From: Scytonema hofmannii PCC 7110
GTDB lineage: Bacteria > Cyanobacteriota > Cyanobacteriia > Cyanobacteriales > Nostocaceae
Reading direction: 5' to 3'
Assembly: GCF_000346485.2 (NCBI RefSeq)
Contig: NZ_KQ976354.1
Coordinates: forward strand, 5,780,824-5,812,823
Length of the DNA: 32,000 nt
Shown here: piece after piece, positions 9,200 to 30,767 of the stretch
How positions within the stretch are numbered: the first letter of the stretch is position 1
Layout: each line of letters starts with the position of its first letter
Translations under genes and position numbers: made by a program
The notes under the pieces: model-generated
What the model was told of the DNA's origin: nothing
What the model saw: the letters and a program-made list of their open reading frames with translations, nothing else
Databases searched by the model: none

Positions 9200-9480
9200 T
9201 TCTCCTAGCTTTAGTCACGCTTCGTGACTTTTGATAAGACGTGAATGATGAGCGTTTGTGCGATCGCATGGGGTGTTCTGCCCCCGGTGCGCTACCGCTC
9301 ATCGGGCAAGTTTCTCTGGAAGCTACGGGCGATCGCGTTCCTTAACTCCTTTTTCGCTGAAGATCGACACCGCCACTCCCTATCCTTAAGTTCGGGTAAA
9401 GAACTAGCCATTCGATTGACTTGAAACTGACTGTAAGACTAGTACAATTCGTTAGAAGTACGGAGGCAGAGGCAGAAGGC

Positions 9481-9544
9481 GCAAATGCTTTTATTGTAAG
9501 CTTTTTGTCTGTTAAGAATAGTTGCCTTATTTTTGACTCAAAGT
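9481..9544. repeat. Second copy of the dispersed GGCAGAAGG...AAGCTTTTTGT...GTTGCCTTATTT repeat
   Basis: Co-linear with 794..855. Confidence 0.5.
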
Positions 9545-9752
9545 TGGTAAAATACTCCTAGTTGGTGAAGCCACTCCACGAGAAATTAAGACTCTTCGCC
9601 ATGTATTCCACCTAAATGCCCTTTCGTGTAATGCTGCATTACTTATCAGTCGAAACTTAAGCTATAAGTTTTTACCTCAATTACGGAATTGAGAACTAAA
9701 ATCATGTGGTAGTAAGTAAAGTAAATAAGATGCCATTTTTATGAGGTAGCAC

Positions 9753-10193
9753 ATGGAACCACTAACTGCTGGGGCGATCGCTGTTGGTACTATAGTTGCC
9801 ACTAAAGTTTTAGAAAAAACAACAGAAAAGGGAACAGAAATCTTATTGGACAAAGCTGGTAAGTTCTTAGTTACCCTGAAGAAACACTCTCCCAATACTG
9901 TAGTTGCGATAGAGAAAGCACCCTCTCAACCACTCGATTACGGCAAAGCGCTACTGGAAGTAGAATCTGCGGCTAAGGCTAATCCTGAAGTGGCTGAAGC
10001 TGCACGGGAATTAGCAACAGCAGCAGAAATTAATCCACCATCAAACCTGGCTGAAATTCTAAGGCAGATAAAAGAAGCTGTGTCCAAGTCTCAAAAATCA
10101 TATCCTTCAAGTTTTATTCAAAACATCGAAAAAGCTATTAATGCGGCTCAAAACCAAACCATTGACCAAAGCGGCAGTACTTTCAATATTTGA
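9753..10193 (+). CDS. 146-aa N-terminal-domain ORF with a hydrophobic Gly/Ala-rich first helix then Ala/Glu-rich helices. It is in frame with the NB-ARC-TPR gene, separated only by TGA
   Basis: MEPLTAGAIAVGTIVATKVLEK... Stop TGA is at 10191-10193 and is directly followed by GTG at 10194 in the same frame ((10194-9753)/3 = 147). Confidence 0.6.
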   Translation: MEPLTAGAIAVGTIVATKVLEKTTEKGTEILLDKAGKFLVTLKKHSPNTVVAIEKAPSQPLDYGKALLEVESAAKANPEVAEAARELATAAEINPPSNLAEILRQIKEAVSKSQKSYPSSFIQNIEKAINAAQNQTIDQSGSTFNI

Positions 10194-12770
10194 GTGGAGT
10201 CGCCTGAATGGGAACGGGTAAAGTTAAATCCCCCAAATAATCTTCAGTTTTCAGGAACAGCCAACTTTGTAGGGCGAGCACATGAACTGACTATCTTGCA
10301 TGAAAAGTTTCAAAGAACGGGTGCTGTAGCTATTTCATCTGTTGCTGGTATGGGCGGAGTTGGTAAAACTGAACTGGCGGTTCAATATATAAAACAGCAT
10401 GAAGCCGACTATGCTGGTGGTATTTGCTGGTTATCAGCTAGAGAATCAGATGTAGCAGCGAGTATTGTGCAGTTCGCACAGCTACATATGAAATTGGAAG
10501 TCCCACAGCAGGATTTTCGTGGAAAGGTGCTGAGTCTGACTGAACAAGTAGAATGGTGCTGGCAGCATTGGCAACCACCAGAGGGAATCGCATTAATCAT
10601 ATTAGATGATGTTACTTCTGTGGGTAATTATCGGCATCTACTACCAAAAAGTAACCGTTTCCGTATATTAATGACAACACGGGTGCGAAATTTAGACCCG
10701 AATATTGACGAGATTTCCTTGGATATGCTGTCTCCACAAGAGGCGTTGCAATTATTGATAGCAATCTTTGGAAATAAGCGGGTAGAAAAGGCAATTGATG
10801 TAGCACAACAACTGTGTGAATGGTTGGGATACTTGCCCTTGGGTTTGGAATTGGTAGGAAGGTATGTGGCGAAAAAACCGCCTAACTGGACTTTAGCAAA
10901 AATGTTGCAACAGTTGAAACAGCAGTCGCTCACTAATACTGCCATAAATCAGGAGTTGCAACGAACTTTGAGTACAGCACAGCGTAGTGTGTTAGCCGCT
11001 TTTGAATTAAGCTGGCAGGAACTTTCACTTCCAACACAGCTTTTAGCTGCATTATTAAGCTTGTATGCACCAAATATCATTGCCTGGGAATGGGTGGAGT
11101 CTACAGGTGAATTGCTCAATTGGAGTTCGACTGATATCGAAACAGCAAACGAGCAACTGTATACACTTCATTTGATTCAATCAGTAGAGGATACATCTGG
11201 TGAGTATAAAATTAGACTTCATTCCTTAATTCGCGAGTTCCTGAAACTGAAGCTAGCAGCATCACAACAAGCTGATGATTTAAAACGGGGTTTTGTAGAG
11301 GCAATGGTGGCGATCGCTCAAGAAATTCCCGATTATCCAACTAAGGAGTTCATTAAGTCGGTGAAAGATGCTATCCCACATTTAGCAGAGGTAGCACAAA
11401 ATCTGAGTGATATAGTCAGTGATGAAAATTTAATTTCAGTTTTTAATGGATTGGGTAGATTTTATGAAGGACAGGGTTTATATGTGCTGGCTCAACCATG
11501 GTTAGAGCAATTTGTATCAGTAGTCCAATCCCGTTTGGGAGAGGAGCATTCGGATGTCGCTACCAGTTTCAACAACCTAGCTCATCTTTACTCAGACCAA
11601 GGAAGGTACGCAGAAGCTGAACCACTCTACATCAAAGCTTTGAAACTATGGCAACGCCTGTTGGGAGAGGAGCATCCCGATGTCGCCAGCGGTTTCAACA
11701 ACCTGGCTTCTATCTACGAATCCCAAGGAAGGTACACAGAAGCCGAACCACTCTACGTCAAAGCTTTGGAACTAAGGCAACGCCTGCTGGGAGAGGAGCA
11801 TTCCGATGTCGCCCAAAGTTTCAACAACTTGGCTTCTATCTACGAATCCCAAGGAAGGTACACAGAAGCCGAACCGCTCTACATCAAAGCTTTGGAACTA
11901 AGGCAACGCCTGCTGGGAGAGGAGCATCCTCTTGTCGCCACCAGTTTCAACAACCTAGCTAATCTCTACGCAACCCAAGGAAGGTACGCAGAAGCCGAAC
12001 GACTCTACATCAAAGCTTTGGAACTAAGGCAACGCCTGCTGGGAGAGGAGCATCCTTTTGTCGCCCAAAGTTTCAACAACCTGGCTTTACTCTACTCAGA
12101 CCTTGGAAAGTACACAGAAGCTGAACCACTCTACATCAAAGCTTTGGAACTGTTGCAACGCTTGCTGGGAGAGGAGCATCCTCTTGTCGCCAAAAGTTCC
12201 AACGACCTGGCTTTACTCTACTCAGACCTTGGAAAGTACACAGAAGCCGAATCACTCTTCACGAAAGCTTTGGAACTAAGGCAACGCCTGCTGGGAGAGA
12301 AGCATCCCGATGTCGCCCAAAGTTTCAACAACCTGGCTTATCTCTACAATTTCCAAGGAAAGTACACAGAAGCCGAATCACTCTTCACGAAAGCTTTGGA
12401 ACTCAGGCAACGCTTGCTGGGAGAGGAGCATCTAGATGTCTCCATCAGTTTCAATAACCTGGCTTCTCTCTACTCATCTCAAGGAAGGTACACGGAAGCC
12501 GAACCACTCTACATCAAAGCTTTGGAACTGTTGCAACGCTTGCTGGGAGAGGAGCATCCTCTTGTCGCTCAAAGTTTCAACAACCTGGCAGGACTATACA
12601 AATCCACTGGACGTTACACTGAAGCAGAACTGTTGCACAGTAAAGCATTGAAAATTTGTGAGCAACAGTTAGGTGTGGGTAGTTCAATAACAATAGCAGT
12701 CAGAAAAAATTATGCAGTTTTTTTGCATGAGTATGCAGAGTTTTTGAGAAACAAACTAAGTGCCAGTTGA
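10194..12770 (+). CDS. NB-ARC (STAND) NTPase with 9 TPR (TPR_12/kinesin-light-chain-like) 42-aa repeats
   Basis: P-loop GMGGVGKTELAVQY; Walker B ALIILDDV; GLPL-like motif GYLPLGLELVG; then nine units EEHPxVAxSFNNLAxLYxxQGRYTEAEPLYIKALELRQRLLG. The only start ahead of the P-loop is GTG 10194, abutting the upstream TGA. Confidence 0.85.
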   Translation: MESPEWERVKLNPPNNLQFSGTANFVGRAHELTILHEKFQRTGAVAISSVAGMGGVGKTELAVQYIKQHEADYAGGICWLSARESDVAASIVQFAQLHMKLEVPQQDFRGKVLSLTEQVEWCWQHWQPPEGIALIILDDVTSVGNYRHLLPKSNRFRILMTTRVRNLDPNIDEISLDMLSPQEALQLLIAIFGNKRVEKAIDVAQQLCEWLGYLPLGLELVGRYVAKKPPNWTLAKMLQQLKQQSLTNTAINQELQRTLSTAQRSVLAAFELSWQELSLPTQLLAALLSLYAPNIIAWEWVESTGELLNWSSTDIETANEQLYTLHLIQSVEDTSGEYKIRLHSLIREFLKLKLAASQQADDLKRGFVEAMVAIAQEIPDYPTKEFIKSVKDAIPHLAEVAQNLSDIVSDENLISVFNGLGRFYEGQGLYVLAQPWLEQFVSVVQSRLGEEHSDVATSFNNLAHLYSDQGRYAEAEPLYIKALKLWQRLLGEEHPDVASGFNNLASIYESQGRYTEAEPLYVKALELRQRLLGEEHSDVAQSFNNLASIYESQGRYTEAEPLYIKALELRQRLLGEEHPLVATSFNNLANLYATQGRYAEAERLYIKALELRQRLLGEEHPFVAQSFNNLALLYSDLGKYTEAEPLYIKALELLQRLLGEEHPLVAKSSNDLALLYSDLGKYTEAESLFTKALELRQRLLGEKHPDVAQSFNNLAYLYNFQGKYTEAESLFTKALELRQRLLGEEHLDVSISFNNLASLYSSQGRYTEAEPLYIKALELLQRLLGEEHPLVAQSFNNLAGLYKSTGRYTEAELLHSKALKICEQQLGVGSSITIAVRKNYAVFLHEYAEFLRNKLSAS
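11530..12665 (+). repeat. Nine tandem 126-bp TPR-coding repeats with high nucleotide identity
   Basis: GGAGAGGAGCATCC...AACAACCTGGCT...GAAGCCGAACCACTCTACATCAAAGCTTTGGAACTAAGGCAACGCCTGCTG recurs with 126-bp period. Confidence 0.9.
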
Positions 12771-12825
12771 GTATTCCACGAAGGAGCCAAAAGGTAGAAT
12801 AAGTGGCTCAAAGTATTAATTTCTC

Positions 12826-13059
12826 GTGAAGTGGCGTCATCAATATGGAGCATATTACCATGGAAATAATCGTGAATTGGAGCGCTCGCTACGACCACTT
12901 CAAAACCAACTTCCCGATCCCAAAAATCAAAAAGCTTACAAACAATGGTGGCTCTCAAACGGTCAAGCTTGGACTGAGCAACCTAGGAGTGTGACGATCT
13001 CTCATCGCAACATCGGTCACGATTGGCAGTTTACCGACTCTCAGAAAGATCGCTCTTAG
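12826..13059 (+). pseudogene. Possible remnant of a C-terminal module seen in cyanobacterial NACHT-family proteins
   Basis: ...KQWWLSNGQAWTEQPRSVTISHRNIGHDWQFTDSQKD resembles, from memory, a conserved ...WW..NG..WTEQLR.VMI.HRNIGHDWQFS..QK... module. The ORF has no credible N-terminus and stops early. Confidence 0.3.
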
Positions 13060-13086
13060 CCTCAACTTCCCACAAGCCTACCGCAA

Positions 13087-13929
13087 TCAAGGTCTCGTGT
13101 GTTGCTTGCACAAATGCTCCATCTCAAGAGCAATCGCATCCCACGGAGCAAAACGGCTGCGTACCAGCAACCAAACGTCCTCATCAAAGCACCTTTCATA
13201 AGAGCGCGATCGCCTGTTCCACCCGATGCGTCCAAAAAACTTAACGTCGTAGGGCTGTGGTTTCCACAGTCCTTTGTAACGGTTCCAAGTTGTTTCCAGG
13301 CAAGTTGGCTGCAGCACGCTTGAAACTTGTTCAAAGTCTTTTCTCCTGAATGCTGCAACACCCTTAAATGCATGGTTAAACAACAGCACCATATTCAATC
13401 CCAAATGCTTGGGCAAACACTGTTCTAACTCCTCTCTAGAGTGAGGCTCGCGACCGTCGGGCAAATACATCCTGTTGCACAGTTCGCTCTCAACCGCTTC
13501 ATAGGCGAGCAGCATCCTTGGAAAGTCAATCGCTCTCAGTTCTGGGGGTTGAGTCGTAGTCCCTTCTATCTGTGGCACAAAATTAAACAACCGCAAGGTA
13601 TCGCGCATAAATTCCCGACATCGGCGGATGGAACGAGGGCTGAAATAAGCTCCTTGCCAGTGCGTTTGGAGGTAGTCTGACAAATACAATACCGCGCCCG
13701 TAATCGTTAGCTCTCCGGCGGCTGAGAGTGCTACTAAATTCTCAAATTTGGCAGCGTCTATAACTAACTTACCGTCTACTTTGTCAGCCGCTGCATAATG
13801 TCTAACAATGCAGTAGGCATAGAAATTTAACATCCCTGCTAGCTGCAAAAGTTTGGGGGTTGAAAGGGCAAAAATTGCGTTTCCTACCTCGATCCGAATG
13901 TCCTGAATCTCTTGTGGTAATAACATCAT
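13087..13929 (-). CDS. Hypothetical protein (~280 aa), no family recognised
   Basis: Long uninterrupted ORF. ATG-ATG at 13929 is preferred over the listed TTG at 13959. No motif recognised by eye. Confidence 0.55.
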   Translation of the reverse strand: MMLLPQEIQDIRIEVGNAIFALSTPKLLQLAGMLNFYAYCIVRHYAAADKVDGKLVIDAAKFENLVALSAAGELTITGAVLYLSDYLQTHWQGAYFSPRSIRRCREFMRDTLRLFNFVPQIEGTTTQPPELRAIDFPRMLLAYEAVESELCNRMYLPDGREPHSREELEQCLPKHLGLNMVLLFNHAFKGVAAFRRKDFEQVSSVLQPTCLETTWNRYKGLWKPQPYDVKFFGRIGWNRRSRSYERCFDEDVWLLVRSRFAPWDAIALEMEHLCKQHTRP

Positions 13930-17490: not shown

Positions 17491-19428
17491 ATGAGCACAA
17501 TCACGATTCAATGCCGCCTAGTTGCAGAAGAAGCGACCCTGCGCTACTTTTGGGAACTTATGGCTGAGAAGAATACGCCACTCATTAATGAATTGTTGGA
17601 GCAGTTAGGACAACATCCAGATTTTGATACTTGGGTACAAGCAGGCAAGATGCCTGAAAAGACAGTTGAGAACTTGTGCAAGTCCCTAGAAGATCGAGAA
17701 CCTTTTGCAAATCAGCCCGGTCGTTTTCGTACTTCGGCAGTTGCTCTGGTAAAGTACATTTACAAATCCTGGTTTGCGTTACAAAAACGACGGGCGGACA
17801 GACTAGAAGGTAAAGAGCGCTGGTTAAAGATGCTCAAAAGTGATGTGGAACTGGAACGAGAAAGCAATTGTAGTTTGGATATTATTCGAGCTAAAGCTGG
17901 GGAAATTCTTGCTAAAGTTACTGAGGGGTGCGCTCCGAGCAATCAAACATCCTCTAAGAGAAAAAAGAAGAAGACTAAAAAAAGCCAAGCGACAAAAGAT
18001 CTCCCTACGCTTTTCGAGATTATATTAAAAGCTTACGAACAAGCTGAAGAAAGCCTGACACGAGCTGCCCTTGCTTATCTCCTTAAAAATGACTGTGAAG
18101 TCAGTGAAGTTGATGAAGATTCAGAGAAATTTAAAAAGCGACGGCGAAAAAAGGAAATAGAAATTGAACGTTTAAGAAATCAACTGAAAAGTCGGATACC
18201 TAAAGGTCGCGATTTAACCGGAGATAAGTGGTTGAAAACGCTAGAAGAAGCCACCCGAAATGTTCCTGAAAATGAGGATGAGGCAAAAGCTTGGCAAGCC
18301 CAACTCTTAAGAGAAGCTAGTTCTGTTCCTTTTCCTGTAGCTTATGAAACTAGTGAAGATATGACTTGGTTTACCAACGAGCAAGGTCGAATCTTTGTTT
18401 ACTTTAATGGTTCAGCCAAACATAAATTTCAAGTTTATTGCGATCGCCGTCAACTTCATTGGTTTCAACGTTTTGTAGAAGACTTTCAAATCAAGAAAAA
18501 TGGTGATAAAAAAGGTAGCGAAAAGGAGTACCCTGCTGGGTTATTGACGCTTTGTTCCACTCGTCTGAGATGGAAAGAAAGCGCGGAAAAAGGAGATCCT
18601 TGGAATGTTCATCGCCTAATTCTTTCTTGCACTATCGATACACGCTTATGGACACTTGAAGGAACGGAACAGGTGCGAGCTGAAAAGATCGCTCAGGTTG
18701 AAAAAACTATTAGCAAGCGGGAGCAAGAAGTTAATCTGAGTAAGACTCAACTTGAGCGTTTACAAGCCAAGCACAGTGAGAGGGAGAGATTGAACAATAT
18801 TTTTCCCAACCGCCCTAGCAAGCCCAGTTACCGGGGTAAATCTCATATTGCGATCGGTGTAAGCTTCAGTTTGGAAAACCCAGCCACTGTTGCCGTCGTA
18901 GATGTTGCAACCAAGAAAGTCCTTACTTACCGCAGTTTCAAACAATTACTCGGAGATAACTACAACCTTGCAAACCGGCTGCGGCAACAAAAGCAACGTC
19001 TTTCTCACGAACGTCACAAAGCTCAGAAACAAGGCGCACCAAATTCATTTGGAGACTCAGAGTTAGGGCAGTATGTAGACAGATTGCTAGCAAAATCGAT
19101 TGTCGCGATCGCAAAAACTTATCAAGCTAGTAGTATTGTCTTGCCTAAACTTCGCTATATGAGGGAAATCATACATAATGAAGTTCAAGCTAAAGCCGAA
19201 AAAAAGATTCCAGGATATAAAGAAGGTCAAAAACAATATGCCAAACAGTATCGGATAAGCGTTCATCAATGGAGTTATAATAGATTATCACAGATTCTTG
19301 AAAGCCAAGCTACAAAAGCTGGAATTTCAATTGAACGTGGATCGCAAGTAATCCAAGGTAGCTCCCAAGAACAAGCACGAGATTTAGCTTTATTTGCCTA
19401 TAACGAACGCCAACTTAGTCTGGGTTAG
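17491..19428 (+). CDS. cas12k: Cas12k (type V-K effector, nuclease-dead)
   Basis: MSTITIQCRL...NTPLINELLEQLGQHPDFDTW...RQLHWFQRFVEDFQ...HIAIGVSFSLENPATVAVVDV...SHERHKAQK...YAKQYRISVHQWSYNRL parallels ShCas12k as I remember it, along its whole length. RuvC motif I reads GVSFS, with Ser where the catalytic Asp would be. Confidence 0.95.
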   Translation: MSTITIQCRLVAEEATLRYFWELMAEKNTPLINELLEQLGQHPDFDTWVQAGKMPEKTVENLCKSLEDREPFANQPGRFRTSAVALVKYIYKSWFALQKRRADRLEGKERWLKMLKSDVELERESNCSLDIIRAKAGEILAKVTEGCAPSNQTSSKRKKKKTKKSQATKDLPTLFEIILKAYEQAEESLTRAALAYLLKNDCEVSEVDEDSEKFKKRRRKKEIEIERLRNQLKSRIPKGRDLTGDKWLKTLEEATRNVPENEDEAKAWQAQLLREASSVPFPVAYETSEDMTWFTNEQGRIFVYFNGSAKHKFQVYCDRRQLHWFQRFVEDFQIKKNGDKKGSEKEYPAGLLTLCSTRLRWKESAEKGDPWNVHRLILSCTIDTRLWTLEGTEQVRAEKIAQVEKTISKREQEVNLSKTQLERLQAKHSERERLNNIFPNRPSKPSYRGKSHIAIGVSFSLENPATVAVVDVATKKVLTYRSFKQLLGDNYNLANRLRQQKQRLSHERHKAQKQGAPNSFGDSELGQYVDRLLAKSIVAIAKTYQASSIVLPKLRYMREIIHNEVQAKAEKKIPGYKEGQKQYAKQYRISVHQWSYNRLSQILESQATKAGISIERGSQVIQGSSQEQARDLALFAYNERQLSLG

Positions 19429-19506
19429 TTATTAAAATACCGTACCTTGAAAATATCATAAGCTAATAAAGAATCAATACTTTACTACATTGTTTGACAG
19501 GCTCCC

Positions 19507-19540
19507 AAATCCCCAAATTCTTATAAGTTGTTGGGGATTT
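19507..19540 (+). terminator. Perfect 10-bp hairpin after cas12k, overlapping the putative tracrRNA -35
   Basis: AAATCCCCAA (19507-19516) / TTGGGGATTT (19531-19540) with a 14-nt loop. No strong U-tract follows, so terminator function is uncertain. Confidence 0.35.
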
Positions 19541-19565
19541 GGTCAACCTCACCTAATATGGTAGA

Positions 19566-19910
19566 GTACTAATAGCGCCGCAGTTCATGCTCTTTAAGAG
19601 TCTCTGTACTGTGGAAAATCTGGGTTAGTTTGACGGTTGGAAAACCGTTTTGCTTTCTGACCCTGGTAGCTGCCCGCTTCTCATGCTCTGACTTTTCACG
19701 TTATGTGGAAAAAGTAACGTAATTTCGTTAGTTAAGACTTACCGTAAAAAGTCAGTTCTGATGCTGCTGTCGCAAGACAGGATAGGTGCGCTCCCAGCAA
19801 AAGGAGTATGTCTTGAAAAAGACTAGCCGTTCTAGTAACGGTGCGGATTACCGCAGTGGTGGCTACTGAATCACCCCCTTCGTCGGGGGAACCCTCCCAA
19901 ATATTTTTTT
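19566..19910 (+). ncRNA. Type V-K tracrRNA (~345 nt, ends approximate)
   Basis: Blocks TAATAGCGCCGCAGTTCATGCT, GGGTTAGTTTGAC, TTGCTTTCTGACCCTGGTAGCTGC, CTGATGCTGCTGTC..GACAGGATAGGTGCGCTCCCAGCAA and GTGGCTACTGAATCACCCCC..GGGGGAACCCTCC match the ShCAST tracrRNA/sgRNA scaffold from memory. The candidate promoter is TTGGGG-17 nt-TAATAT (19531-19559). A T7 run at 19904-19910 follows the CCCCC/GGGGG hairpin. Confidence 0.8.
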
Positions 19911-20099
19911 GGCAAAGCCAAGCGGGGGCAAAAACCCTGAGGTCCTGCCAAAACACGGAAGCCCTTGTTATATCTTGATTTCAAAATCTAGGTTGTTAAT
20001 TAATTTAGTTTTTTGGTTTTAAGATAGAGCTACTTTTACGCAGCCTTGCCAAATATGCTTGTGTAACGCTCTAAATAATAAGGGTTTTAGACGGGTAGA

Positions 20100-21307
20100 G
20101 TTTCAACAACCATCCCGGCTAGGGGTGGGTTGAAAGTTGTTCCTATGGATCTAGAGTCAAACACGACTTACGCGTTTCAACAACCATCCCGGCTAGGGGT
20201 GGGTTGAAAGGTAAAAATTGAGTCTCTTGAAAGCCATCAAGCGCGTTTCAACAACCATCCCGGCTAGGGGTGGGTTGAAAGAGTGCGGGTGTAAAGATCG
20301 TGACGTGCAGAGGCGAGCGAGTTTCAACAACCATCCCGGCTAGGGGTGGGTTGAAAGTTCCACGGTGAAAATTTTTCGCTTACAACCCGCACCAGTTTCA
20401 ACAACCATCCCGGCTAGGGGTGGGTTGAAAGCAAATGGCACCGAGTCAAGCGCATGGGGAGATTTGTGTTTCAACAACCATCCCGGCTAGGGGTGGGTTG
20501 AAAGGCTAATAACTGTGCTAGAGCAAAAAATAAGTAACATGTTTCAACAACCATCCCGGCTAGGGGTGGGTTGAAAGCGAAATGAGCTTGGTAGATTTTT
20601 TAGCAAAATGGGACGTTTCAACAACCATCCCGGCTAGGGGTGGGTTGAAAGAGGCAATTGCCCTCAGCTGCACAAATTGCCCAAGGGTTTCAACAACCAT
20701 CCCGGCTAGGGGTGGGTTGAAAGATTCATTTGGATCGCAATCCCCTCAACTTCAAAAAGTTTCAACAACCATCCCGGCTAGGGGTGGGTTGAAAGAAGTC
20801 GGTTTCTTCCGCCGCCTTGCGTGGGAGTTTCAACAACCATCCCGGCTAGGGGTGGGTTGAAAGCGGAGGATGCGAGTTATCGCCTGATGCGATCGCACGT
20901 TTCAACAACTATCCCGGCTAGGGGTGGGTTGAAAGCCGATCCTTTGGAGTGGGCAGAAGATCTGAGAGTGCGAGTTTTAACAAGTATCCCGGCTAGAGGT
21001 GGGTTGAAAGAATTAACTCCTCCTAATGCGTATCTTCTGGCGTTTTTGGTTTCAACAACCATTCCGGCTAGGGGTAAGTTGAAAGGAGTGCCACTGTTGG
21101 TGGAATCCTGGTTGCGGCTGGAGTTTTAACAAGTATCCCGGCTAGAGGTGGGTTGAAAGATTGATGATGTACCGGGGTAGACCAATCCCTCCGGAATGTT
21201 TCAACAACCATCCGTACTAAAGATGGATTGAAAGATTTGGTGCAAAATAGGGTCAAGTTATTTTTCAAAAATTTCAACAATTATCTGGCTATAGAATCAG
21301 TTCAGTA
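20100..21307 (+). CRISPR. Type V-K CRISPR array: 16 repeats of 37 nt (20100-21234) plus a degenerate 17th (21271-21307); spacers 31-39 nt
   Basis: Repeat GTTTCAACAACCATCCCGGCTAGGGGTGGGTTGAAAG starts at 20100, 20174, 20245, 20321, 20395, 20468, 20541, 20615, 20687, 20759 and 20827. Variant copies start at 20899, 20974, 21049, 21123 and 21198. Degeneration toward the 3' end places the leader on the tracrRNA side. Confidence 0.97.
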
Positions 21308-22485: not shown

Positions 22486-23340
22486 TCAGCCATCAGCATA
22501 TGCTTTTTCCAACAAAGCTAAGGGGTCAGTCCAACGGCGAATTATCTGGGCTGGGGAGACAGTACGCCTCTGTTCGATGATTGCCAAGGTTTCTAACTGA
22601 TTGAGACACTCCTGTAATGCTTCTGTTTCTATACCAAGAATAGGCGCTAATCCCATTTTCTGCTGTAGGAGATCGTCGGTTAAAACAGAGGTTGTATCGC
22701 CAAAATCCCGTTCCCACAATTTGGCTAGAAAGTATCCAATTAGATAAGGATTGGGTAAAGTAGCATTTCTAGTAGTATATGTATCTTCGTCTAATGTAAG
22801 AAATTGGCAATACTTTAGAGGAGATTCTTCCTTGGTATTTTTATTAGGTGACAACGCATATGCTTTCAAAACAATCGTAAAGTTTTCCATGAGTCTCTTT
22901 TCAGAGTCCTGCTCAAAAATAACAGCGCTACATTGTACTAACTCATTTAGTGTGAAAGTAGGGAGTTCGGGTAAAAAACTATAAACGAAGTAAGACCAAC
23001 CACCCCAATCAGAAGGGTTGTCGGGTGGTTTTGCTAGTCCTTTGTCACCAAAGCTGAGGTAGAAGTGCATCAACCAGTCCGTGATGGTTGATTTTAGATA
23101 AGGGTCTTTTTCAAGAACAATCTTTCCTTCCGGGCTAAGGTAGTTGTCACGAACTAATCCTGCCCTCATCGCCCAACTTTTCATCGGAGCAACTTTCTTA
23201 TTTCCTAAACTTGTTCTCTCCATTAAGTTTTCTATAGTATCTTTTAAACCTTGTTCCTCAGCAGCTGTGCAAAGGATTTTAAGCAGGTCTTCTTTCTTAA
23301 GAGCAAATGTAGTGTGAAAACTAAGTTGTAACCTAGGCAT
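22486..23340 (-). CDS. DUF4007-like protein (SspB-like component of Ssp phosphorothioation systems)
   Basis: Size, the N-terminal SFHTTFAL...LGNKKVAPMKSWAMRAGLV pattern (DUF4007-like, from memory) and linkage to the cysteine desulfurase and PAPS-reductase genes. Confidence 0.5.
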   Translation of the reverse strand: MPRLQLSFHTTFALKKEDLLKILCTAAEEQGLKDTIENLMERTSLGNKKVAPMKSWAMRAGLVRDNYLSPEGKIVLEKDPYLKSTITDWLMHFYLSFGDKGLAKPPDNPSDWGGWSYFVYSFLPELPTFTLNELVQCSAVIFEQDSEKRLMENFTIVLKAYALSPNKNTKEESPLKYCQFLTLDEDTYTTRNATLPNPYLIGYFLAKLWERDFGDTTSVLTDDLLQQKMGLAPILGIETEALQECLNQLETLAIIEQRRTVSPAQIIRRWTDPLALLEKAYADG

Positions 23341-23464
23341 GAATGTTTTGTGGTAGAGAATAAAAATAGTATCTAGAGTTAATTAAGCCCTTACTTAGGA
23401 TGCCCAAAAAATTCCAAAGTGATACATCAAGACAGATTAAGTTTTTGATGTTCAACTCCAACTC

Positions 23465-23665
23465 TCATGGCTCCCGTCTCGGCGGTTTGTAGTTGTAATC
23501 TTCGTAGTAGTCAATTGTCCCAAACAACTCCAACACCTTAGACTGTTTGCGACGTTGTACATATTTGCCCAAGGCAACTTTGACCACATCACGCTCCGTT
23601 TGTTGATTGCCAAGGGCTAGGGCGTCTTGGATGAATGCTTTTTCTATTTGAATATTGATTGCCAT
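23465..23665 (-). CDS. VapB-family type II antitoxin-like protein with no adjacent toxin gene
   Basis: MAINIQIEKAFIQDALALGNQQTERDVVKVALGKYVQRRKQ..LELFGTIDYYEDYNYK follows the M..NI.ID..L..A....G..TK.E.V..AL...V.R... / G.I....DY.Y. pattern of VapB antitoxins. Confidence 0.55.
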   Translation of the reverse strand: MAINIQIEKAFIQDALALGNQQTERDVVKVALGKYVQRRKQSKVLELFGTIDYYEDYNYKPPRREP

Positions 23666-23720
23666 CCACTTACTTTTTGGGCAAACTACTATGTAATTAA
23701 GATTTTACATAAACCTTGCT

Positions 23721-24887
23721 TTAAAAACACATAGCTTGACGGATTAGATGAACGGCAGACGACAGAATTTCAGCCGCCTGTTCGATTTCTGCACTCGTTG
23801 TAAATTTGCCAATCCCAATCCTTAGCGCTCCTTCAATTAAGTTGGAGGGTAAGCCCAAGGCTTGCAGAACATGAGAAGGTGTTTCTACACCTGATGAGCA
23901 AGCAGCACCTGTAGAAATAGCTAGCTGATGCCGAACTCTGGCTATAACTGCACTATTGGGAACATCAGGTATGGAAATATGGAGATTTCCTGATAAACGA
24001 GAGGATAAATCGCCGTTGACCGCTAAATCGGGAATTTTCTTTAGCAGTAATTTTTGTAATCTATCTCTTTTGATAGCGATCGCTTGTTCATCTTCTGCCA
24101 TTTCCAACTGACGCAGGCGACAAGCTTCTCCCAAGCCAACAATACCGGGAACATTGAGAGTTCCAGAACGCAAGCCCTTCTGATGACCACCACCGAATAA
24201 TATTGGCTTTAAATGATACCCTTTACGGATAACTAAAGCACCAGACCCTTTGGGACCGTAGAGTTTGTGAGCGGAGATTGCTAGATAAGTAATTCCCCAC
24301 TCTTCAAAATTGATAGGAATTTTGCCTACAGCCTGGGAAGCATCGCATAGAAAAGGGACACCATACTTTTGAGCAATTTGCCCAACAGCTTGAATGGGGT
24401 AAACGTTCCCAATTTCGTTATTAGCTGCCATAACGCAAAGTAAAGATAGCCCTGATGCACAAACTTGCTCAAGATATTCCAAGTCAAGCCTCCCTTCGGA
24501 ATCAACTTTCAAGTAAACAATCTCAGCAAGTCCCCGTTTAGCTAAAGCGTGGCAAGTGTCTAAAACTGCTTTGTGTTCAACAGGTAGAACAGCAATTCGG
24601 TGCTTTTTGTTCGCTTGAGAAAGCAGACTGCCTTGAATAACTATATTTATGCTTTCAGTTGCACCAGAAGTAAAAATGACTTGCTTTGGCGATACGCTTA
24701 CTAGTTTACCAACGTGAGAAGCTGATTTTGAAACGGCTTGTTCTGCCTCATTCCCATATTCATGATCTATGCTGCTTGCATTACCAAATGCTGTGGTCAT
24801 GTAATGCAGTATCAATGGTGCGACTCTGAGGTCTACAGGAGTCGTCGCATGATAGTCTAAGTAGATGATGTTACCTTTTCTAGTCAC
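23721..24887 (-). CDS. Class V aminotransferase / cysteine desulfurase (SspA/DndA/IscS-like)
   Basis: IYLDYHATTP, TSGATESIN, the PLP-lysine context SAHKLYGPKG, RSGTLNVPGIVG and the active-site loop STGAACSS. Confidence 0.9.
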   Translation of the reverse strand: MTRKGNIIYLDYHATTPVDLRVAPLILHYMTTAFGNASSIDHEYGNEAEQAVSKSASHVGKLVSVSPKQVIFTSGATESINIVIQGSLLSQANKKHRIAVLPVEHKAVLDTCHALAKRGLAEIVYLKVDSEGRLDLEYLEQVCASGLSLLCVMAANNEIGNVYPIQAVGQIAQKYGVPFLCDASQAVGKIPINFEEWGITYLAISAHKLYGPKGSGALVIRKGYHLKPILFGGGHQKGLRSGTLNVPGIVGLGEACRLRQLEMAEDEQAIAIKRDRLQKLLLKKIPDLAVNGDLSSRLSGNLHISIPDVPNSAVIARVRHQLAISTGAACSSGVETPSHVLQALGLPSNLIEGALRIGIGKFTTSAEIEQAAEILSSAVHLIRQAMCF

Positions 24888-25118
24888 TGGATATTAATAT
24901 AAATTTCTCTACCGGATTTTTGGAATTCATCCATTTTTATCAGAAATTTTGACCTATATATCTATGTGCTTTCTGCTTGATTGCTTCAATAACTGCATAA
25001 CGCCCTGCACTGCTATTGATGTCTTCTTTCTAAAAGAGCTTTTAAGAAAATTCCTCTTAATTTTGTTGACCGATACTGATTGGGAAATGATTGCTAGAGC
25101 AGCAAATTCAACATCTGA

Positions 25119-27383
25119 TTAAGTGAGCCAATCATACATACGATCCCAAAGAATATCACATATACGCTCTGTTCTTTTTTCTACAAAAGCTTTATCCCAT
25201 TTACCAGATGCTCCTAACTGCACAATAGGCACAATATGATGCTTGTGGGATGTCTTTTGCAGTAATTTGATTGTATCTTCGCATAGATTTACTCCATGCT
25301 TTTCCGCTTCTTTCTTTAATTTTTTTAAAATATCAGGATCTGTTTCTGCTAAATGTCGATAGTAAATCCATTTTTCAATCCAACCTTTATTACTAGCAGA
25401 ACTGTTAATTTCTTTAGGAAGAAGAGTCAAATTTCCAATTTGTTCATAATCATCATTTTCATATAACGCTTTATCCCAAATACTATTTCTTGTTTGAGAT
25501 TTAGGCGCTACGTGCTCTATATGCTTAAAATTTTCATCATCCCATTTACTTGGTTCTAAGTACGGGGAAGAGTGTAACATCCCATTTTTCATTAACCCTA
25601 AAGCACTTGGATCTGGAATAGTATCATGTGATGTCACAAAAAGTACAAATCGACAAACTTGTTTAGCATTATCATATCTCAAATATTGAACTGCTTTTTT
25701 CTTCCAGTCATCTTTATTTCCTATTCCTTTATCATCTAGCTTCTTCCTAAAATATTTCCGCAAATTTTCCACCGTTAACTCAGCATTACCTTTTTTCCAT
25801 GACATTTTTTCGTGAAGCAAGTCTCGATATACATCATCAAGACCCGTATTTGGTAATGCTGACCTCCAAATAGTAAAAAAAGCTGCAACTGTTTTACAAG
25901 TGAAAACAAATTCTCGTTCTGAATTGGGTTCGTTGCGTAAAATAAGAGCATAGAAGCGACTCAGAATTGTATTTGCCATCTTATGTCCTGCATCCTGAAG
26001 GTAAAGTAGACAAAGAATAGCTTCCTTTCTCTCTGGTTCTGCTACATTCTGTATTTCAGTTAAAGCACTATAAAGGTTTTTCTTATTGGAGGAATAAATT
26101 AACTTACTACAGTAGTTAGCAGTATCACTCATCCGGCGGACAAATTCTTCTCTAAAGCTGATTTTGTCTTCTTTAATATATTCATCTATTAACCAATTTC
26201 TCTGGGCGCTAAACTGCTTTGATAACTTTTTTCCATCATATGCTAGTGCAAAAAGGTTGAGATATTCATTTGTTCGTTTGTTTTTACTAGAAGCACTTCG
26301 CAAGGTACTCATTAGTTTTTCTACTTGTGTGAAGTATTCTTCTGATTTTGAACCCTGAAATCCATTCCCCTTTGAGTCAACATAATTAACAACCAATGGT
26401 TTGAAGGTTTCTAGAGCTGTAAGGGGAGTCCCCGTTGCATTTAGGGACTGAAACATATCAAATGCCCGAACTTGGGACACTGGTTGGATTAAGGTGAGGC
26501 AGCATCGTTCAAGTAAGAAATAACAAAAGGCAAAAAGCTGTACAAGTGAGCAGACTTTTTCTTGTTCATCAGTCATTGGAGTGTTACGATGCTGAATTAA
26601 ATTAACTAGATCTGGTCGCTGATAACTCCATAAGTCTACTTGATTTACCTTTTCCAGTATGTCCCAAGCTGGAGGAAAGTCTTCTGTACTTAATTTATGT
26701 GCGTTTTCAATTTTATCGAGCCAGAATTTCATGGCTTTCAAATTATCCGCAACGAGCGAGTTTTTTCTCGGATCCGGATATTGATTTGGATTAAGATAAA
26801 TAGCACATATAAAGCTTGCTAGAAATGAAGAAACATCGGATTTATAGTGCTTATTATCATCTCCACTTAATGTCCATCCATCAATTGAACCTCTAATAAG
26901 AATTGGCTTACGATTAGGTTTACCACGCATAAGGTCAACAGAAAATACATCTAAGAGAGTATTTAAATAAGTATTACTTGCTTCCTGTAATTCTTCCATT
27001 TCATCTCTTTCTGGCAATTGTTTTGTAATTTCGCATATTCTTCTGTATAAACAGCAGGCAAGTAAAGTAATAGTTGATAGCCGTTGTTGTCCATCGATAA
27101 CATTATCTATACGAGTAGGAAGAGCACGAGGATCTTGTGGCTTTACATTGTTTTCAACATCATTTTCGGTCACTAGAATGATAGTTCCCATAAAGTGAAG
27201 CGTATCCGCAGAGTCAAGTAGGTCTTTAACACCCGAACAGATATCATCCATCAATTGTTCAATGTTTTCTTCATCCCAGCTATATTCTCGTTGGTATAGA
27301 GGAATATAATATCCAATTCCTGGTCTTCTAAAAAAATATGATACTGATTCACTAACCGTGCTAAACGCTCTTGATATTTCCAT
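25119..27383 (-). CDS. DUF262 + DUF1524 protein, SspE-like phosphorothioation-associated restriction component
   Basis: N-terminal YYIPLYQREYSWDEENIEQL and DGQQRLSTITLL (DUF262). C-terminal HIEHVAPKS ... GNLTLLPKEINSSASNKGW (DUF1524/His-Me finger). The 754-aa size and its position inside a PT operon fit SspE. Confidence 0.75.
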   Translation of the reverse strand: MEISRAFSTVSESVSYFFRRPGIGYYIPLYQREYSWDEENIEQLMDDICSGVKDLLDSADTLHFMGTIILVTENDVENNVKPQDPRALPTRIDNVIDGQQRLSTITLLACCLYRRICEITKQLPERDEMEELQEASNTYLNTLLDVFSVDLMRGKPNRKPILIRGSIDGWTLSGDDNKHYKSDVSSFLASFICAIYLNPNQYPDPRKNSLVADNLKAMKFWLDKIENAHKLSTEDFPPAWDILEKVNQVDLWSYQRPDLVNLIQHRNTPMTDEQEKVCSLVQLFAFCYFLLERCCLTLIQPVSQVRAFDMFQSLNATGTPLTALETFKPLVVNYVDSKGNGFQGSKSEEYFTQVEKLMSTLRSASSKNKRTNEYLNLFALAYDGKKLSKQFSAQRNWLIDEYIKEDKISFREEFVRRMSDTANYCSKLIYSSNKKNLYSALTEIQNVAEPERKEAILCLLYLQDAGHKMANTILSRFYALILRNEPNSEREFVFTCKTVAAFFTIWRSALPNTGLDDVYRDLLHEKMSWKKGNAELTVENLRKYFRKKLDDKGIGNKDDWKKKAVQYLRYDNAKQVCRFVLFVTSHDTIPDPSALGLMKNGMLHSSPYLEPSKWDDENFKHIEHVAPKSQTRNSIWDKALYENDDYEQIGNLTLLPKEINSSASNKGWIEKWIYYRHLAETDPDILKKLKKEAEKHGVNLCEDTIKLLQKTSHKHHIVPIVQLGASGKWDKAFVEKRTERICDILWDRMYDWLT

Positions 27384-27664
27384 TACACCCTCCTATTAAA
27401 GAAATGTCTAATTCATATTTAATGATGTCAATTTGTTAATTATTTATTAGATGAATAACAAGTTATTGAAAATAATAGGCTAAACAACACAAACTCAGAT
27501 TTGAGTGAGTTATCAATTCAGTTAAAAATCGATTAGACATAAAATTATTTTCCTTGAGTTTTCTTAAATTCCCCATAATTAATTCATGTGTCAAATTTTA
27601 ATTTCTAACTTTTCCTTTCTGTATTCATACGTTCTACTTGAAGTCATTTTTCTTATAATAAACC

Positions 27665-29968: not shown

Positions 29969-29971
29969 AAA

Positions 29972-30655
29972 TTAGCGCCTCCCGCATATTGGATCTGAGA
30001 CAAGTTGTAAAAGCTTTTCTAAAGCACGTCTAGAAGTAGTATCAAATTCGGTATCATCATTATCTTCACCAATTTCAGCCGGAAGAGAATTAGTAGGAAA
30101 TATATGTACCATTAAGTCTCTTGGAGCTATTCTTCTAACTCTTGCTTCAAGAGGAAATGAATGAGGTATATTTAGCTGCTTCATAGTGGATTTAACACTT
30201 GCATTAGGAAAGATATTCAGGTGTTTACTGATTGAGGAAGTATCATTCCACATCTCATCTAAAGATATATAGTGTTGTAAATAAGCTCTTCGATATAAAT
30301 TCTTTGCTATACCTATATAAATGGGTCTAGTAAAAAAATACAAGGCATTAGATTTAAACAAGTCAATTAGAAAATTTTCAGCGCAAGCTACAACTTCATC
30401 AAGTACTTCTGACGCTATCTGTCTTTGAGATCCATACACAAATTTCAAGGTAGATTTTGATACTAAATGTACACCATAACGCATTTCGATCTCTGTCAGC
30501 ATTTCACTTGGAGTTTCAAGAAAAGATGCAATAGTCTGACTGACAACAAGAGTATCTACCACAAGTGGTCTATAATACCAAGCGTATAAACCTGATACAG
30601 GAGGAATTCGTGCAATCTGCACTCCACCTTGGAACTGCCTTTGCTCTTTTTGCAT
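29972..30655 (-). CDS. 227-aa protein, possible GIY-YIG-like nuclease with a long insertion between the GIY and YIG strands
   Basis: SGLYAWYY near the N-terminus and RPIYIGIAKNLYRRAYLQHY ~85 aa later resemble the GIY ... YIG-x-A-x-N-L-x-x-R motifs. The functional call is weak; the ORF itself is solid. Confidence 0.45.
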   Translation of the reverse strand: MQKEQRQFQGGVQIARIPPVSGLYAWYYRPLVVDTLVVSQTIASFLETPSEMLTEIEMRYGVHLVSKSTLKFVYGSQRQIASEVLDEVVACAENFLIDLFKSNALYFFTRPIYIGIAKNLYRRAYLQHYISLDEMWNDTSSISKHLNIFPNASVKSTMKQLNIPHSFPLEARVRRIAPRDLMVHIFPTNSLPAEIGEDNDDTEFDTTSRRALEKLLQLVSDPICGRR

Positions 30656-30767
30656 CTATTCACCTAAATAATCTCGTAAAATGATTTGATTTTTTATATT
30701 TTGGTTCTTCAGTACTTGTTATGCTAAATTAACAGATACTGAAGAGCCTATATTTTTAGCGTTTAAT

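Follow-up and report, generated by a model that had tools for sequence, protein, structure and literature searches.

Programmed stop-codon read-through is, to our knowledge, known almost exclusively from viruses. Described signals include the UGA of phage Qbeta coat/A1, the UAG of MuLV gag-pol with its 8-nt spacer and pseudoknot, and the UGA-C followed by a 3′ stem-loop in alphaviruses and coltiviruses. We know of no bacterial cellular gene for which structure-stimulated read-through has been shown.

The locus described here also touches several known systems. In 'all-in-one' NLR/STAND proteins (fungal HeLo/HELL-NB-ARC-TPR, plant CC-NLRs, bacterial Avs/bNACHT), effector domain, NTPase and sensor are carried by one polypeptide. 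In the Bell/BASS pairs of filamentous bacteria, a defining motif is found both on the C-terminus of the effector and on the N-terminus of the NLR; their description mentions neither stop codons nor read-through (Dyrka et al. 2020, bioRxiv 10.1101/2020.01.06.895854). The EADs of NTP-dependent conflict systems are small non-enzymatic helical modules of multicellular cyanobacteria, free or fused N-terminally to core NTPases (dynamin-like, STAND) and sensors (FGE-sulfatase/FGS). They are proposed to act via homotypic interaction, and recoding is not mentioned (Kaur et al. 2020, PMC7159879). A search of the literature on read-through with NB-ARC, cyanobacteria or anti-phage systems returned no description of a junction such as the one reported below.

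We analysed a window of 32,000 nucleotides from Scytonema hofmannii PCC 7110, in which a small ORF (ORF1) and an NB-ARC-TPR ORF (ORF2) are separated by a single in-frame TGA. As in the viral signals, the stop would be leaky, the +4 base weak and the extension in the zero frame, with a structure 8 nt downstream and two products at a predicted fixed ratio; unlike them, it lies in chromosomal bacterial immune-type genes, its hairpin is very short (5 bp) and it forms a portable effector-sensor junction. The predicted read-through product of ~1005 aa has exactly the 'all-in-one' layout (effector, NB-ARC, TPR), in agreement with an earlier note on this DNA, except that here the effector domain would also come free, as the major product. 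A sister locus (L046) carries the Bell/BASS motif at both positions, whereas the window and ~100 related loci have neither a motif copy on the NLR nor an NLR start codon of its own; what lies between their two in-frame ORFs is a conserved UGA with an RNA hairpin. ORF1 resembles EADs in kind but matches none of their Pfam families, and its free and fused copies would come from one gene by recoding, not from two genes.

Two reading frames and one in-frame TGA

The features of the locus are the following:

9743–9746, + strand: SD-like GAGG, 6 nt 5′ of the ORF1 ATG (sequence read directly)
9753–10190, + strand: ORF1 coding region, 146 aa, ATG start (ORF including stop, 9753–10193); proposed termination product
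10191–10193, + strand: conserved in-frame TGA (opal) codon; proposed read-through site
10194–12770, + strand: ORF2, 858 codons plus stop, GTG start; linker, NB-ARC and nine TPR units
10266–10277, + strand: FVGR motif, start of the NTPase module, about codon 24 after the TGA, kept in 30 loci
10347–10370, + strand: P-loop GMGGVGKT, holding the first ATG of ORF2 (10350–10352, ORF2 codon 53)

Direct reading of the junction gives ...TTC AAT ATT TGA GTG GAG TCG..., with the TGA at 10191–10193 as sole separator of two ORFs that share one frame. The first methionine of ORF2 lies inside the P-loop, so that no ATG precedes this motif. Both points had been made in the earlier note and were confirmed. ORF2 is a bona fide NB-ARC-TPR protein, a STAND/NLR-like NTPase in which a P-loop NB-ARC (residues 36–266, Pfam 3e-16) is followed by a repeat sensor domain of nine TPR_12/TPR_10 units (TPR_12, 1.5e-148). 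An intact NB-ARC cannot be made from an ATG of ORF2. The AAA_16 profile begins at ORF2 residue 24; one in two of the homologous NB-ARC loci has its first canonical start only after this point.

By direct reading, nothing SD-like precedes the GTG at 10194, and the GAGG at 9743–9746 is likely the single ribosome entry point for the products of both ORFs. A consensus scan of 9200–13100 gave 3 promoter-like matches (5.3 in shuffled sequence) and 1 terminator-like match (3.5 in shuffled sequence); a weak promoter-like match (9/12) lies at 10162–10190, immediately 5′ of the TGA, and the hairpin after the TGA was not called as a terminator. A promoter or terminator between ORF1 and ORF2 was rejected on these numbers, which are lower than in shuffled sequence. 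No tRNA was found in the window.

Homologues of ORF1 (n = 377) are nearly all free-standing proteins of 144–146 aa, and the 184 matches in a representative library are mostly 130–160 aa long. The AF2 model is all-helical, with 7 helices and a pLDDT of 68. No match was obtained in Pfam, NCBIfam or PADLOC, a profile search of PDB sequences returned nothing at a meaningful E-value, and the best Foldseek hit of the model against the PDB had E = 0.89; ORF1 is for this reason not formally placed in the Bell, HeLo or EAD families. In more distant homologues no stop intervenes, and the domain is continuous with a dynamin-like GTPase or a HEAT-repeat protein. These fusions and the sister pair described below support the view, already expressed in the earlier note, that ORF1 is an effector- or adaptor-like N-domain.

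At L046, the sister locus, the ORF1 homologue ends in TAA, followed by a 25-nt gap and an ATG. The N-terminus of its NLR repeats the tail motif AEKIG.V.P.G of the ORF1 homologue (9/17 identities, pairwise E = 2e-4). As judged from these alignments, the TAA-ending sister subfamily is a classic two-gene Bell/BASS-type pair, in which the NLR shares a short motif. In the window, no alignment of the ORF1 tail with the ORF2 N-terminus was found at E ≤ 100.

The window has another stop at a domain boundary, a minus-strand TAG (3815–3817) that parts an NNH5-NACHT ORF from a WD40 ORF. The TGA had been called a second event of this sort; the TAG does exist, but differs in kind: an ATG follows it by four codons, and the TGA-hairpin element is absent.

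A conserved TGA followed by an RNA element

In ~100 cyanobacterial genome and metagenome loci, a number that overstates independent events since loci are related by phylogeny and modules are exchanged, the ORF1 homologue ends in TGA and the frame stays open for hundreds of codons beyond. These loci belong to many genera, across the Nostocales and beyond, and an arrangement that recurs to this extent far exceeds chance. The homologue ends in TGA at 56/80 genome loci, ~43 of which stay open in frame for >200 codons, and in relatives that lack such a frame the stop is TAA or TAG and in no case TGA. Part of the counts were made by eye from alignments. The aligned genome junctions all carry TGA (50/50; TAA or TAG, 0). 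In the metagenome scan, where elements were picked by their 3′ half only and with no reference to the stop, all 36 full elements had a TGA exactly 19 nt upstream of the search pattern. The sole sense replacement among the homologues is TGG (Trp), in two sequences (L040, which has a later TAA, and P0268); no Cys codon (TGT/TGC) occurs at this position. When a profile spanning the junction was run against 5.8 billion proteins, one protein only crossed it.

The +4 base is C in 40/50 and G in 10/50 genome loci, is G in the window copy, and is never T/U in ~100 loci. In bacteria, +4U is the strong signal for termination (PMC5289835); the context of the conserved TGA (C or G, never U) is weak for termination.

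About six TGA loci have truncated downstream ORFs, and in L050 a second stop follows the first (TGA CTG TAG), which indicates that some copies are decaying. The clearly decaying related copies are L013, L040 and L050.

The alignments A2 and A3 show a compact element directly after the stop, whose hairpin had escaped the earlier note:

10194–10201, + strand: 8-nt spacer from stop to hairpin, GUGGAGUC in the window; family consensus CUNNAGUC
10202–10219, + strand: RNA hairpin with arms 10202–10206 (GCCUG) and 10215–10219 (CGGGU) and loop 10207–10214 (AAUGGGAA)
10220–10232, + strand: A-rich tract AAAGUUAAA then UCCC; near-invariant columns in A2 and A3

Both alignments keep the spacer at 8 nt throughout. 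The helix was found unaided by RNAalifold; its 5 bp are paired in 98.8–100% of alignment cells, and 0/500 shuffles reached the observed score. Three helix pairs have changes on both sides: the main covarying pair (25–41 of the alignment) has two states (UA 30, CG 19, UG 1), and two others show compensatory CG-to-UA and GC-to-CG changes. G·U pairs are frequent, two of the five pairs in the window hairpin being of this kind. Covariation and G·U pairs are confined to the sense strand, and the G·U pairs point to a sense-strand RNA and not to a DNA site. The window copy folded alone is no better than its shuffles (z = 0.12). UCCC (10229–10232) might tentatively pair with the loop GGGA (10210–10213) to form an H-type pseudoknot; this second helix is paired in 86% (A2) and 96% (A3) of cells, with one compensatory case only (L002, GAGA/UCUC).

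No Rfam family matches the junction. The window has a single copy of the element, and in the other loci each system likewise has one; a dispersed repeat or MITE was rejected on this ground. A mini-hairpin GAC/GUC including the stop codon was also rejected, by inspection: the partner base is C in ~20% of loci, and compensation is impossible because the stop bases are fixed.

The region downstream of the TGA bears marks of translation. Loop insertions of +1 (L018, L088, L103/L155, L170/L101/L126) put the loop in another frame, changing ERERAKLNP to EQGTGKVKSP; a -1 or +2 change ~25 nt further on restores the frame before the NB-ARC-TPR ORFs, which are intact. Since the insertions are corrected downstream, the region is translated; the element itself is conserved as nucleotides, independently of the encoded peptide. 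Before any start codon, changes in frame 0 are synonymous only (ATT CCT TAT CGC versus ATA CCC TAT CGT).

Sequence upstream of the junction is highly variable among loci. Upstream of the TGA-hairpin module lie helical N-domains of several families, or a domain resembling alpha/beta-hydrolases; downstream lie NB-ARC-TPR, NACHT-HEAT, CHASE2, FGE-sulfatase or one further domain. Comparison of these combinations indicates that the junction is portable between modules.

Proposed programmed UGA read-through and competing readings

The same in-frame TGA with a hairpin 8 nt on, kept in ~100 loci, points to programmed stop-codon read-through. We give a probability of roughly two in three (0.68) to ORF1 and ORF2 being one recoded gene expressed in this manner. 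Ribosomes would begin at the ORF1 ATG, and most would stop at the UGA (10191–10193) to release a free 146-aa helical protein, a Bell-like effector or adaptor, probably membrane-targeting and with an amyloid-like tail. A minority would decode the UGA, most likely as Trp via near-cognate tRNA-Trp, and continue in frame; the 'all-in-one' NLR so made (effector domain, linker, NB-ARC, TPR) would be the main form in which ORF2 is produced. Leakiness would be set by the choice of UGA, the weak +4 base and the hairpin or possible pseudoknot exactly 8 nt on. The rare fusion would then serve as sensor: binding of a trigger by the TPRs would lead to NB-ARC oligomerisation, clustering N-domains and tails, and these could then seed the free ORF1 protein, present in abundance, or recruit it for an abortive-infection-type cell death. 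Read-through would in this way take the place of the amyloid motif that, in the sister subfamily, is present twice and links the two genes.

The alternative that survives best, which we nevertheless consider unlikely, is termination-reinitiation: ribosomes would stop at the UGA and, perhaps held by the hairpin, restart at the adjacent codon, giving a separate 858-aa ORF2 and no fusion. The earlier note had presented a GTG restart and read-through as the two options. Read-through remains a real one, and in the window copy, where the GTG adjoins the stop, reinitiation is possible; an adjacent restart would also account for the coinciding frames and the compensated loop insertions. The GTG, in contrast to the TGA, is not conserved. 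The codon after the TGA in the 50 genome loci is CTG (18, a rare bacterial start codon), CTA (16), GTG (7) or another (9), and GTG is found in 1 of ~50 metagenome loci; less common codons include CCN, CAG, GAA and, in metagenome loci, ATC and AAG. A canonical start directly at the stop is accordingly absent from 43/50 genome and ~49/50 metagenome loci. In half of the genome loci the stop is followed by CTA, CTC, CTT, CCN, CAG, GAA or GTA, none of which, like ATC and AAG, is a known start. Coupling would moreover be compatible with any stop codon, yet the ~100 loci show TGA only; no SD-like sequence lies ahead of the junction, the upstream sequence being highly variable, and the TGG variants argue that a fused product is tolerated.

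Slightly less probable again is a pair of independent genes, with the NLR translated from an internal or non-canonical start and the conserved 45-nt block serving mRNA processing or stability, or as a recombination junction that shuffles modules. The block does lie exactly where differing upstream and downstream modules meet, as expected of a recombination hotspot, and gene callers annotate two genes. In a few loci, GTG or TTG occurs 2–7 codons before FVGR. However, the first ATG/GTG/TTG falls past FVGR in 15/30 NB-ARC loci, so that in half of them an internal start would cost the NLR its FVGR or its P-loop; on an Anabaena PCC 7120-type chromosome, gene callers begin the NLR 5 aa ahead of the P-loop. 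Two genes would also leave without explanation the coinciding frames, the correction of loop insertions within ~25 nt, the exclusive use of TGA and the synonymous-only changes before any start codon, and the G·U pairs favour a sense-strand RNA over a DNA site.

Selenocysteine insertion, with the UGA and hairpin acting as a bacterial SECIS element, is very improbable. The layout resembles that of bacterial selenoprotein genes, with an in-frame UGA and a conserved small stem-loop within ~10 nt of it, inside coding sequence. Published work, by contrast, describes the lineage as one that does not decode Sec: 61 cyanobacterial genomes yielded no tRNA-Sec with its UCA anticodon (PMC6933170), and selD-bearing cyanobacteria are reported as non-Sec-decoding (PMC1273633). 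In addition, the sense variant is TGG and not TGT or TGC, the site is an inter-domain linker and not a redox site, and Rfam offers no matching family.

A recent nonsense mutation or a sequencing error, making the window copy a pseudogene, was considered in the earlier note and is what a lone stop at a domain boundary resembles when viewed in isolation, all the more as some related copies are decaying, but it is refuted by the identical TGA in ~100 loci of many genera and by an ORF2 intact over 858 codons with all its domains.

Returning to programmed read-through, a bolder and improbable extension would make the UGA a conditional gate. Appreciable production of full-length sensor would require a disturbance of UGA termination, possibly by phage-encoded opal-suppressor tRNAs or stop-codon recoding, RF2 inhibition or depletion, or translation stress; stop and hairpin would together sense infection and arm free effector made in advance. 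A paper on the Anabaena trn operon mentions neither suppressors nor UGA.

Consequences for cyanobacterial NLR-like genes

If read-through is true, the UGA, 8-nt spacer and hairpin would amount to a recoding signal that occurs naturally, and is conserved, in cellular genes of bacteria. We give about even odds to this being the first RNA-structure-assisted programmed read-through signal in such genes. Anabaena/Nostoc sp. PCC 7120, a model strain, has a homologous locus (BAB74487.1 with an NB-ARC-TPR gene downstream of it) in which the proposal could be put to a direct test. Annotation would be affected for hundreds of cyanobacterial NLR-like genes that now appear with truncated N-termini or as 'hypothetical 146-aa proteins'. 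Bacterial NLR-type immunity would gain a new wiring, in which one gene yields much free effector and little effector-sensor fusion, and this one-gene output replaces the duplicated amyloid motif of two-gene systems.

The junction in the window and its surroundings

A single in-frame TGA (10191-10193) divides two ORFs, as the earlier note had described and as the window sequence and ORF calls bear out:

9753-10193, forward strand: ORF1, gene of a small helical protein, 146 aa, ATG start
10194-12770, forward strand: ORF2, NB-ARC-TPR gene, 858 aa, in the same frame as ORF1

The junction reads ...TTC AAT ATT TGA GTG GAG TCG.... ORF2 carries an NB-ARC domain (residues 36-266, 3e-16) followed by nine TPR_12/TPR_10 units. 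Its first Met sits within the P-loop GMGGVGKT, so that no ATG lies ahead of the P-loop, again in agreement with the note. An SD-like GAGG is located 6 nt upstream of the ORF1 ATG; inspection of the window sequence revealed nothing comparable ahead of the GTG at 10194. A deletion variant almost identical to the window comes from Scytonema sp. NUACC21 (P0302, 86 aa; P-numbers denote homologous proteins): ORF1 residues 1-15 are joined straight to ...VKLNPPNNLQFSGTANFVGRAHEL..., with loss of the hairpin, the TGA and the bulk of ORF1, which suggests a close relationship between that strain and the source of the window.

The window, cyanobacterial and Nostocales-like, is a defence island adjoining a type V-K CRISPR-associated transposon (CAST):

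17491-19428: Cas12k, 645 aa (PADLOC 5.7e-284)
20100-21085: CRISPR array of 13 repeats, after Cas12k (Rfam CRISPR-DR15)
22486-31565, reverse strand: Dnd/Ssp-like DNA-modification/restriction cluster (DUF4007, class-V aminotransferase, GmrSD with N and C domains, DndB-like, PAPS-reductase)
6492-8363: second GmrSD_N protein
3815-5389, reverse strand: NNH5-NACHT ORF, ending in TAG (3815-3817)
2162-3805, reverse strand: WD40 ORF, in frame with the NNH5-NACHT ORF, with an ATG four codons past the TAG (TAG ACA GCC ATA ATG)

Cas12k and the array (17491-21085) make up the CAST (type V-K) end of the element. Defence genes are densely packed in the cargo, whose ORFs include two of GmrSD type together with DndB-like, PAPS-reductase, class-V aminotransferase and AAA_16 ORFs. 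ARAGORN found no tRNA in the whole window. The other stop at a domain boundary to which the earlier note alluded exists, as the in-frame TAG at 3815-3817, but it is of a different type: the NNH5-NACHT/WD40 boundary has neither a TGA nor a copy of the hairpin element, and resembles a split gene or a coupled pair of the ordinary kind.

Conservation of the TGA and of an RNA element

Homologues of ORF1 (377 at E <= 1e-3 among 5.8 billion proteins) are nearly all free-standing, 144-146 aa long, and come from Nostoc, Anabaena, Brasilonema, Scytonema, Stigonema, Mastigocladus and others; among 1.8 billion representatives there were 184 matches, most of 130-160 aa. Fusions to dynamin-like GTPases or HEAT-repeat proteins, with no intervening stop, occur in a few distant homologues (<=42% identity) and indicate that the ORF1 N-domain is a promiscuous N-terminal module. 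Foldseek and profile searches of the PDB gave ORF1 no credible fold match. The JGI names of several 146-aa proteins (P0038, P0049, P0103, P0120, P0276 and others) are mutually unrelated ('ABC-type transporter Mla subunit MlaD', 'Flp pilus assembly CpaE family ATPase', 'SPINDLY family O-GlcNAc transferase', 'MinD-like ATPase'); some fit TPR or P-loop proteins and may have been carried over from annotation of the downstream ORF.

TGA ends the ORF1 homologue in 56 of the 80 genome loci fetched, and in most of these the frame directly past the stop is open for hundreds of codons, while relatives without a continuing frame end in TAA (about 20) or TAG (2) and never in TGA; as the loci are related and trade modules, these counts do not represent independent events. 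The earlier note had asked whether orthologues conserve the TGA-GTG junction: the TGA is conserved, in genome loci and metagenome elements alike, and the adjoining GTG in a minority only. In Okeania (L034, 3424-4011; L-numbers denote homologous genome or metagenome loci) and Dapis (L035, 5001-5981), ORF1 homologues terminate at TGA-C, and the frame runs on into short ORFs of 49 and 180 codons rich in transmembrane helices. The hairpin block is absent at both; either a simpler kind of read-through site or chance may account for them.

Metagenome contigs were then scanned with the 3′ half of the element only (GGGAACGGRYAAAGTTAA), blind to the stop. In 36 of 36 matches also bearing the 5′ arm, a TGA lay exactly 19 nt upstream of the pattern, and a covariance model recovered 54 elements with the TGA at the same columns in each. 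The sole exception, L040 from a Dolichospermum MAG, has TGG (...STFNF-W-QHSSDGERTKL...). A protein profile spanning the junction, run against 5.8 billion proteins, returned a single crossing protein, P0268 (Dolichospermum), with Trp at the stop position and FVGRETEL...GMGGLGKT intact downstream. Near-cognate tRNA-Trp at UGA would insert Trp.

The TGA is followed by about 45 nt that are conserved at the nucleotide level, even at third codon positions (consensus TGA CTN NAG TCG YCY GAN NGG GAA CGG RCA AAG TTA AMT CCC), whereas the flanks, ORF1 tails on the 5′ side and domains on the 3′ side, diverge widely. RNAalifold, unprompted, placed in this block a 5-bp helix starting exactly 8 nt 3′ of the TGA:

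10202-10206 and 10215-10219, forward strand: hairpin arms in the window (RNAalifold)

Pairing is kept in 98.8% of cells over 50 genome sequences, with changes on both sides at three of the five pairs (UA 30 / CG 19 / UG 1; CG to UA; GC to CG). None of 500 shuffles reached the observed covariation, and sliding the 3′ arm by 1-3 columns collapses the signal. Behind the same ORF1 tail types the main pair is found in either state, which means that it switched on more than one occasion. G·U is frequent (19/50 at one pair, 11/50 at another), which fits a sense-strand RNA rather than a DNA palindrome. A possible second helix, between GGGA in the loop and a downstream UCCC, pairs in 86-96% of cells with one compensatory case only; it tentatively suggests an H-type pseudoknot with an A-rich third loop. 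The helix is short, and the window copy, which has two G·U pairs, folds as a single sequence no better than shuffles (z = 0.12), so that support for the hairpin is comparative. No Rfam family matches the junction. The element occurs once per system, which rules out a dispersed repeat.

Probable translation across the junction

The codon following the TGA in 50 aligned genome junctions is CTG (18), CTA (16), GTG (7) or, in the remaining nine, CTC, CTT, CCG, CCA, CAG, GAA or GTA. In metagenome junctions, of which about 50 were read from tool alignments, GTG is seen a single time, the others having CTA, CTG, CTC, ATC or AAG. The earlier note had offered a GTG restart or read-through; read-through is the proposal we prefer. 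Reinitiation at the codon adjoining the TGA is possible for the window copy, where that codon is GTG, but does not fit with CTA, CCN, CAG, GAA, ATC and AAG at other loci, with the exclusive use of TGA and with the Trp variants. Moreover, the first downstream in-frame ATG, GTG or TTG lies past FVGR (codon ~24), the motif opening the NTPase module and the point where the AAA_16 profile begins, in 15 of 30 NB-ARC loci, and past the P-loop in some; the downstream ORF is usually without a start codon of its own. On the Anabaena PCC 7120-type chromosome the gene of the NLR (the NB-ARC/STAND-type sensor) is called from a GTG 5 aa ahead of the P-loop, leaving a 129-nt 'intergenic' stretch that is actually open frame. 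In Anabaena/Nostoc sp. PCC 7120 the 146-aa protein is BAB74487.1, an NB-ARC-TPR ORF adjoins it on the 3′ side, and the junction is TTT TGA CTA CAG TCG TCT GGC AGG GAA CAG ACA. Genome and metagenome junctions have C or G right after the stop (+4), seldom A and in no case T; +4U is described as the strong termination signal in bacteria (PMC5289835).

One-base insertions in the hairpin loop (L018, L088, L103/L155, L170/L101/L126) shift the frame over the 3′ arm and the A-rich tract, giving EQGTGKVKSP in place of ERERAKLNP. A -1 or +2 change some 25 nt further on restores the frame in every case, and beyond it the NB-ARC-TPR ORFs are intact for 540-600 codons. In the stretch preceding any start codon, loci differ by changes that are synonymous in frame 0 (ATT CCT TAT CGC vs ATA CCC TAT CGT). 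Compensated indels and synonymous changes together indicate that the region is translated, exclude internal starts as the sole source, and show the nucleotide block to be selected in its own right, not as peptide. Were the two genes independent and the conserved block between them unrelated, both the compensated indels and the exclusive TGA would go unexplained, and we hold this to be improbable. Selenocysteine insertion at the UGA is likewise unlikely: the sense variant is Trp, not Cys, tRNA-Sec was found in 0 of 61 cyanobacteria (PMC6933170) and selD-bearing cyanobacteria are described as non-Sec-decoding (PMC1273633). A lesion or sequencing error in the window copy, which the earlier note had named as its refuting case, is itself refuted by conservation of the TGA among loci.

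Decaying copies also occur: L013, L054, L055 and L062 are truncated, and L040 has a TAA later in frame. In a Brasilonema angustatum MAG (L050, 5421-5429; contig shared with L124) the junction reads TGA CTG TAG, a second in-frame stop two codons on, followed by an intact 553-codon NB-ARC-TPR frame. This second stop may have arisen very recently by nonsense mutation, may be an error of assembly, or may belong to a double read-through site.

From the comparative data we infer read-through of the UGA, together with its rate, the inserted residue and a seeding model. A single ribosome entry site would serve one message; termination at UGA would yield abundant 146-aa helical protein, and occasional decoding, probably as Trp, an effector-NB-ARC-TPR fusion of ~1005 aa. 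Use of UGA, lack of a +4U and the hairpin 8 nt downstream would all promote decoding; at that distance the helix would lie near the mRNA entry channel. The MuLV read-through signal has the same 8-nt spacing. Upon a trigger, the rare fusion would oligomerise and cluster its N-domains, and free protein would be recruited or templated for membrane attack.

A portable junction block

As a junction, the TGA-hairpin block is portable. Its upstream partners include several families of helical 'MEP(L/V)T...' N-domains with differing tails (L128, L131, L083, L127, L165) and an alpha/beta-hydrolase-like domain (FVTHSMGG; weak PGAP1/DUF676 matches) in L122 (1010-1951) and L088 (420-2681), the latter with a complete NB-ARC-TPR ORF 3′ of this domain and the junction. 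Downstream partners include NB-ARC-TPR, NB-ARC, NACHT-HEAT-NCC-H (L028), CHASE2 (L006), FGE-sulfatase (L007) and an unidentified domain (L087). Some contigs carry two systems a few kb apart (L081, 3461-6280 and 9174-9817; L159, 4781-7330 and 7708-8685; L093, elements at 6318 and 10396), indicating that the family grows by local duplication.

Stop codons and read-through are unmentioned in the papers on Bell/BASS, on EAD/conflict systems and on the Anabaena trn operon, and a full-text literature search for read-through with NB-ARC, cyanobacteria or anti-phage systems returned nothing relevant; within the literature searched, the recoding junction appears undescribed.

The TAA two-gene subfamily, exemplified by L046, matches the Bell/BASS architecture (Dyrka et al. 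2020). In L046, ORF1 ends in ...LAEKIGQVVMPGGTGKIDNMSF and the NLR has its own ATG 25 nt past the stop codon. The ORF1-tail motif is repeated at the NLR N-terminus (FAEKIGVYVAPAGQ; 9/17 identities, E = 2e-4), where it precedes the same QAPPLPTYYVNRPEY NB-ARC entry as is found after the hairpin in L003, L004 and L010. Unlike in L046, the ORF1 tail and ORF2 N-terminus of the window share nothing. The finding is real and more interesting than the earlier note proposed, and on comparative grounds would belong with programmed read-through and NLR effector coupling: if read-through occurs, the NLR would gain the effector's own domain and tail, and a duplicated motif would not be needed.
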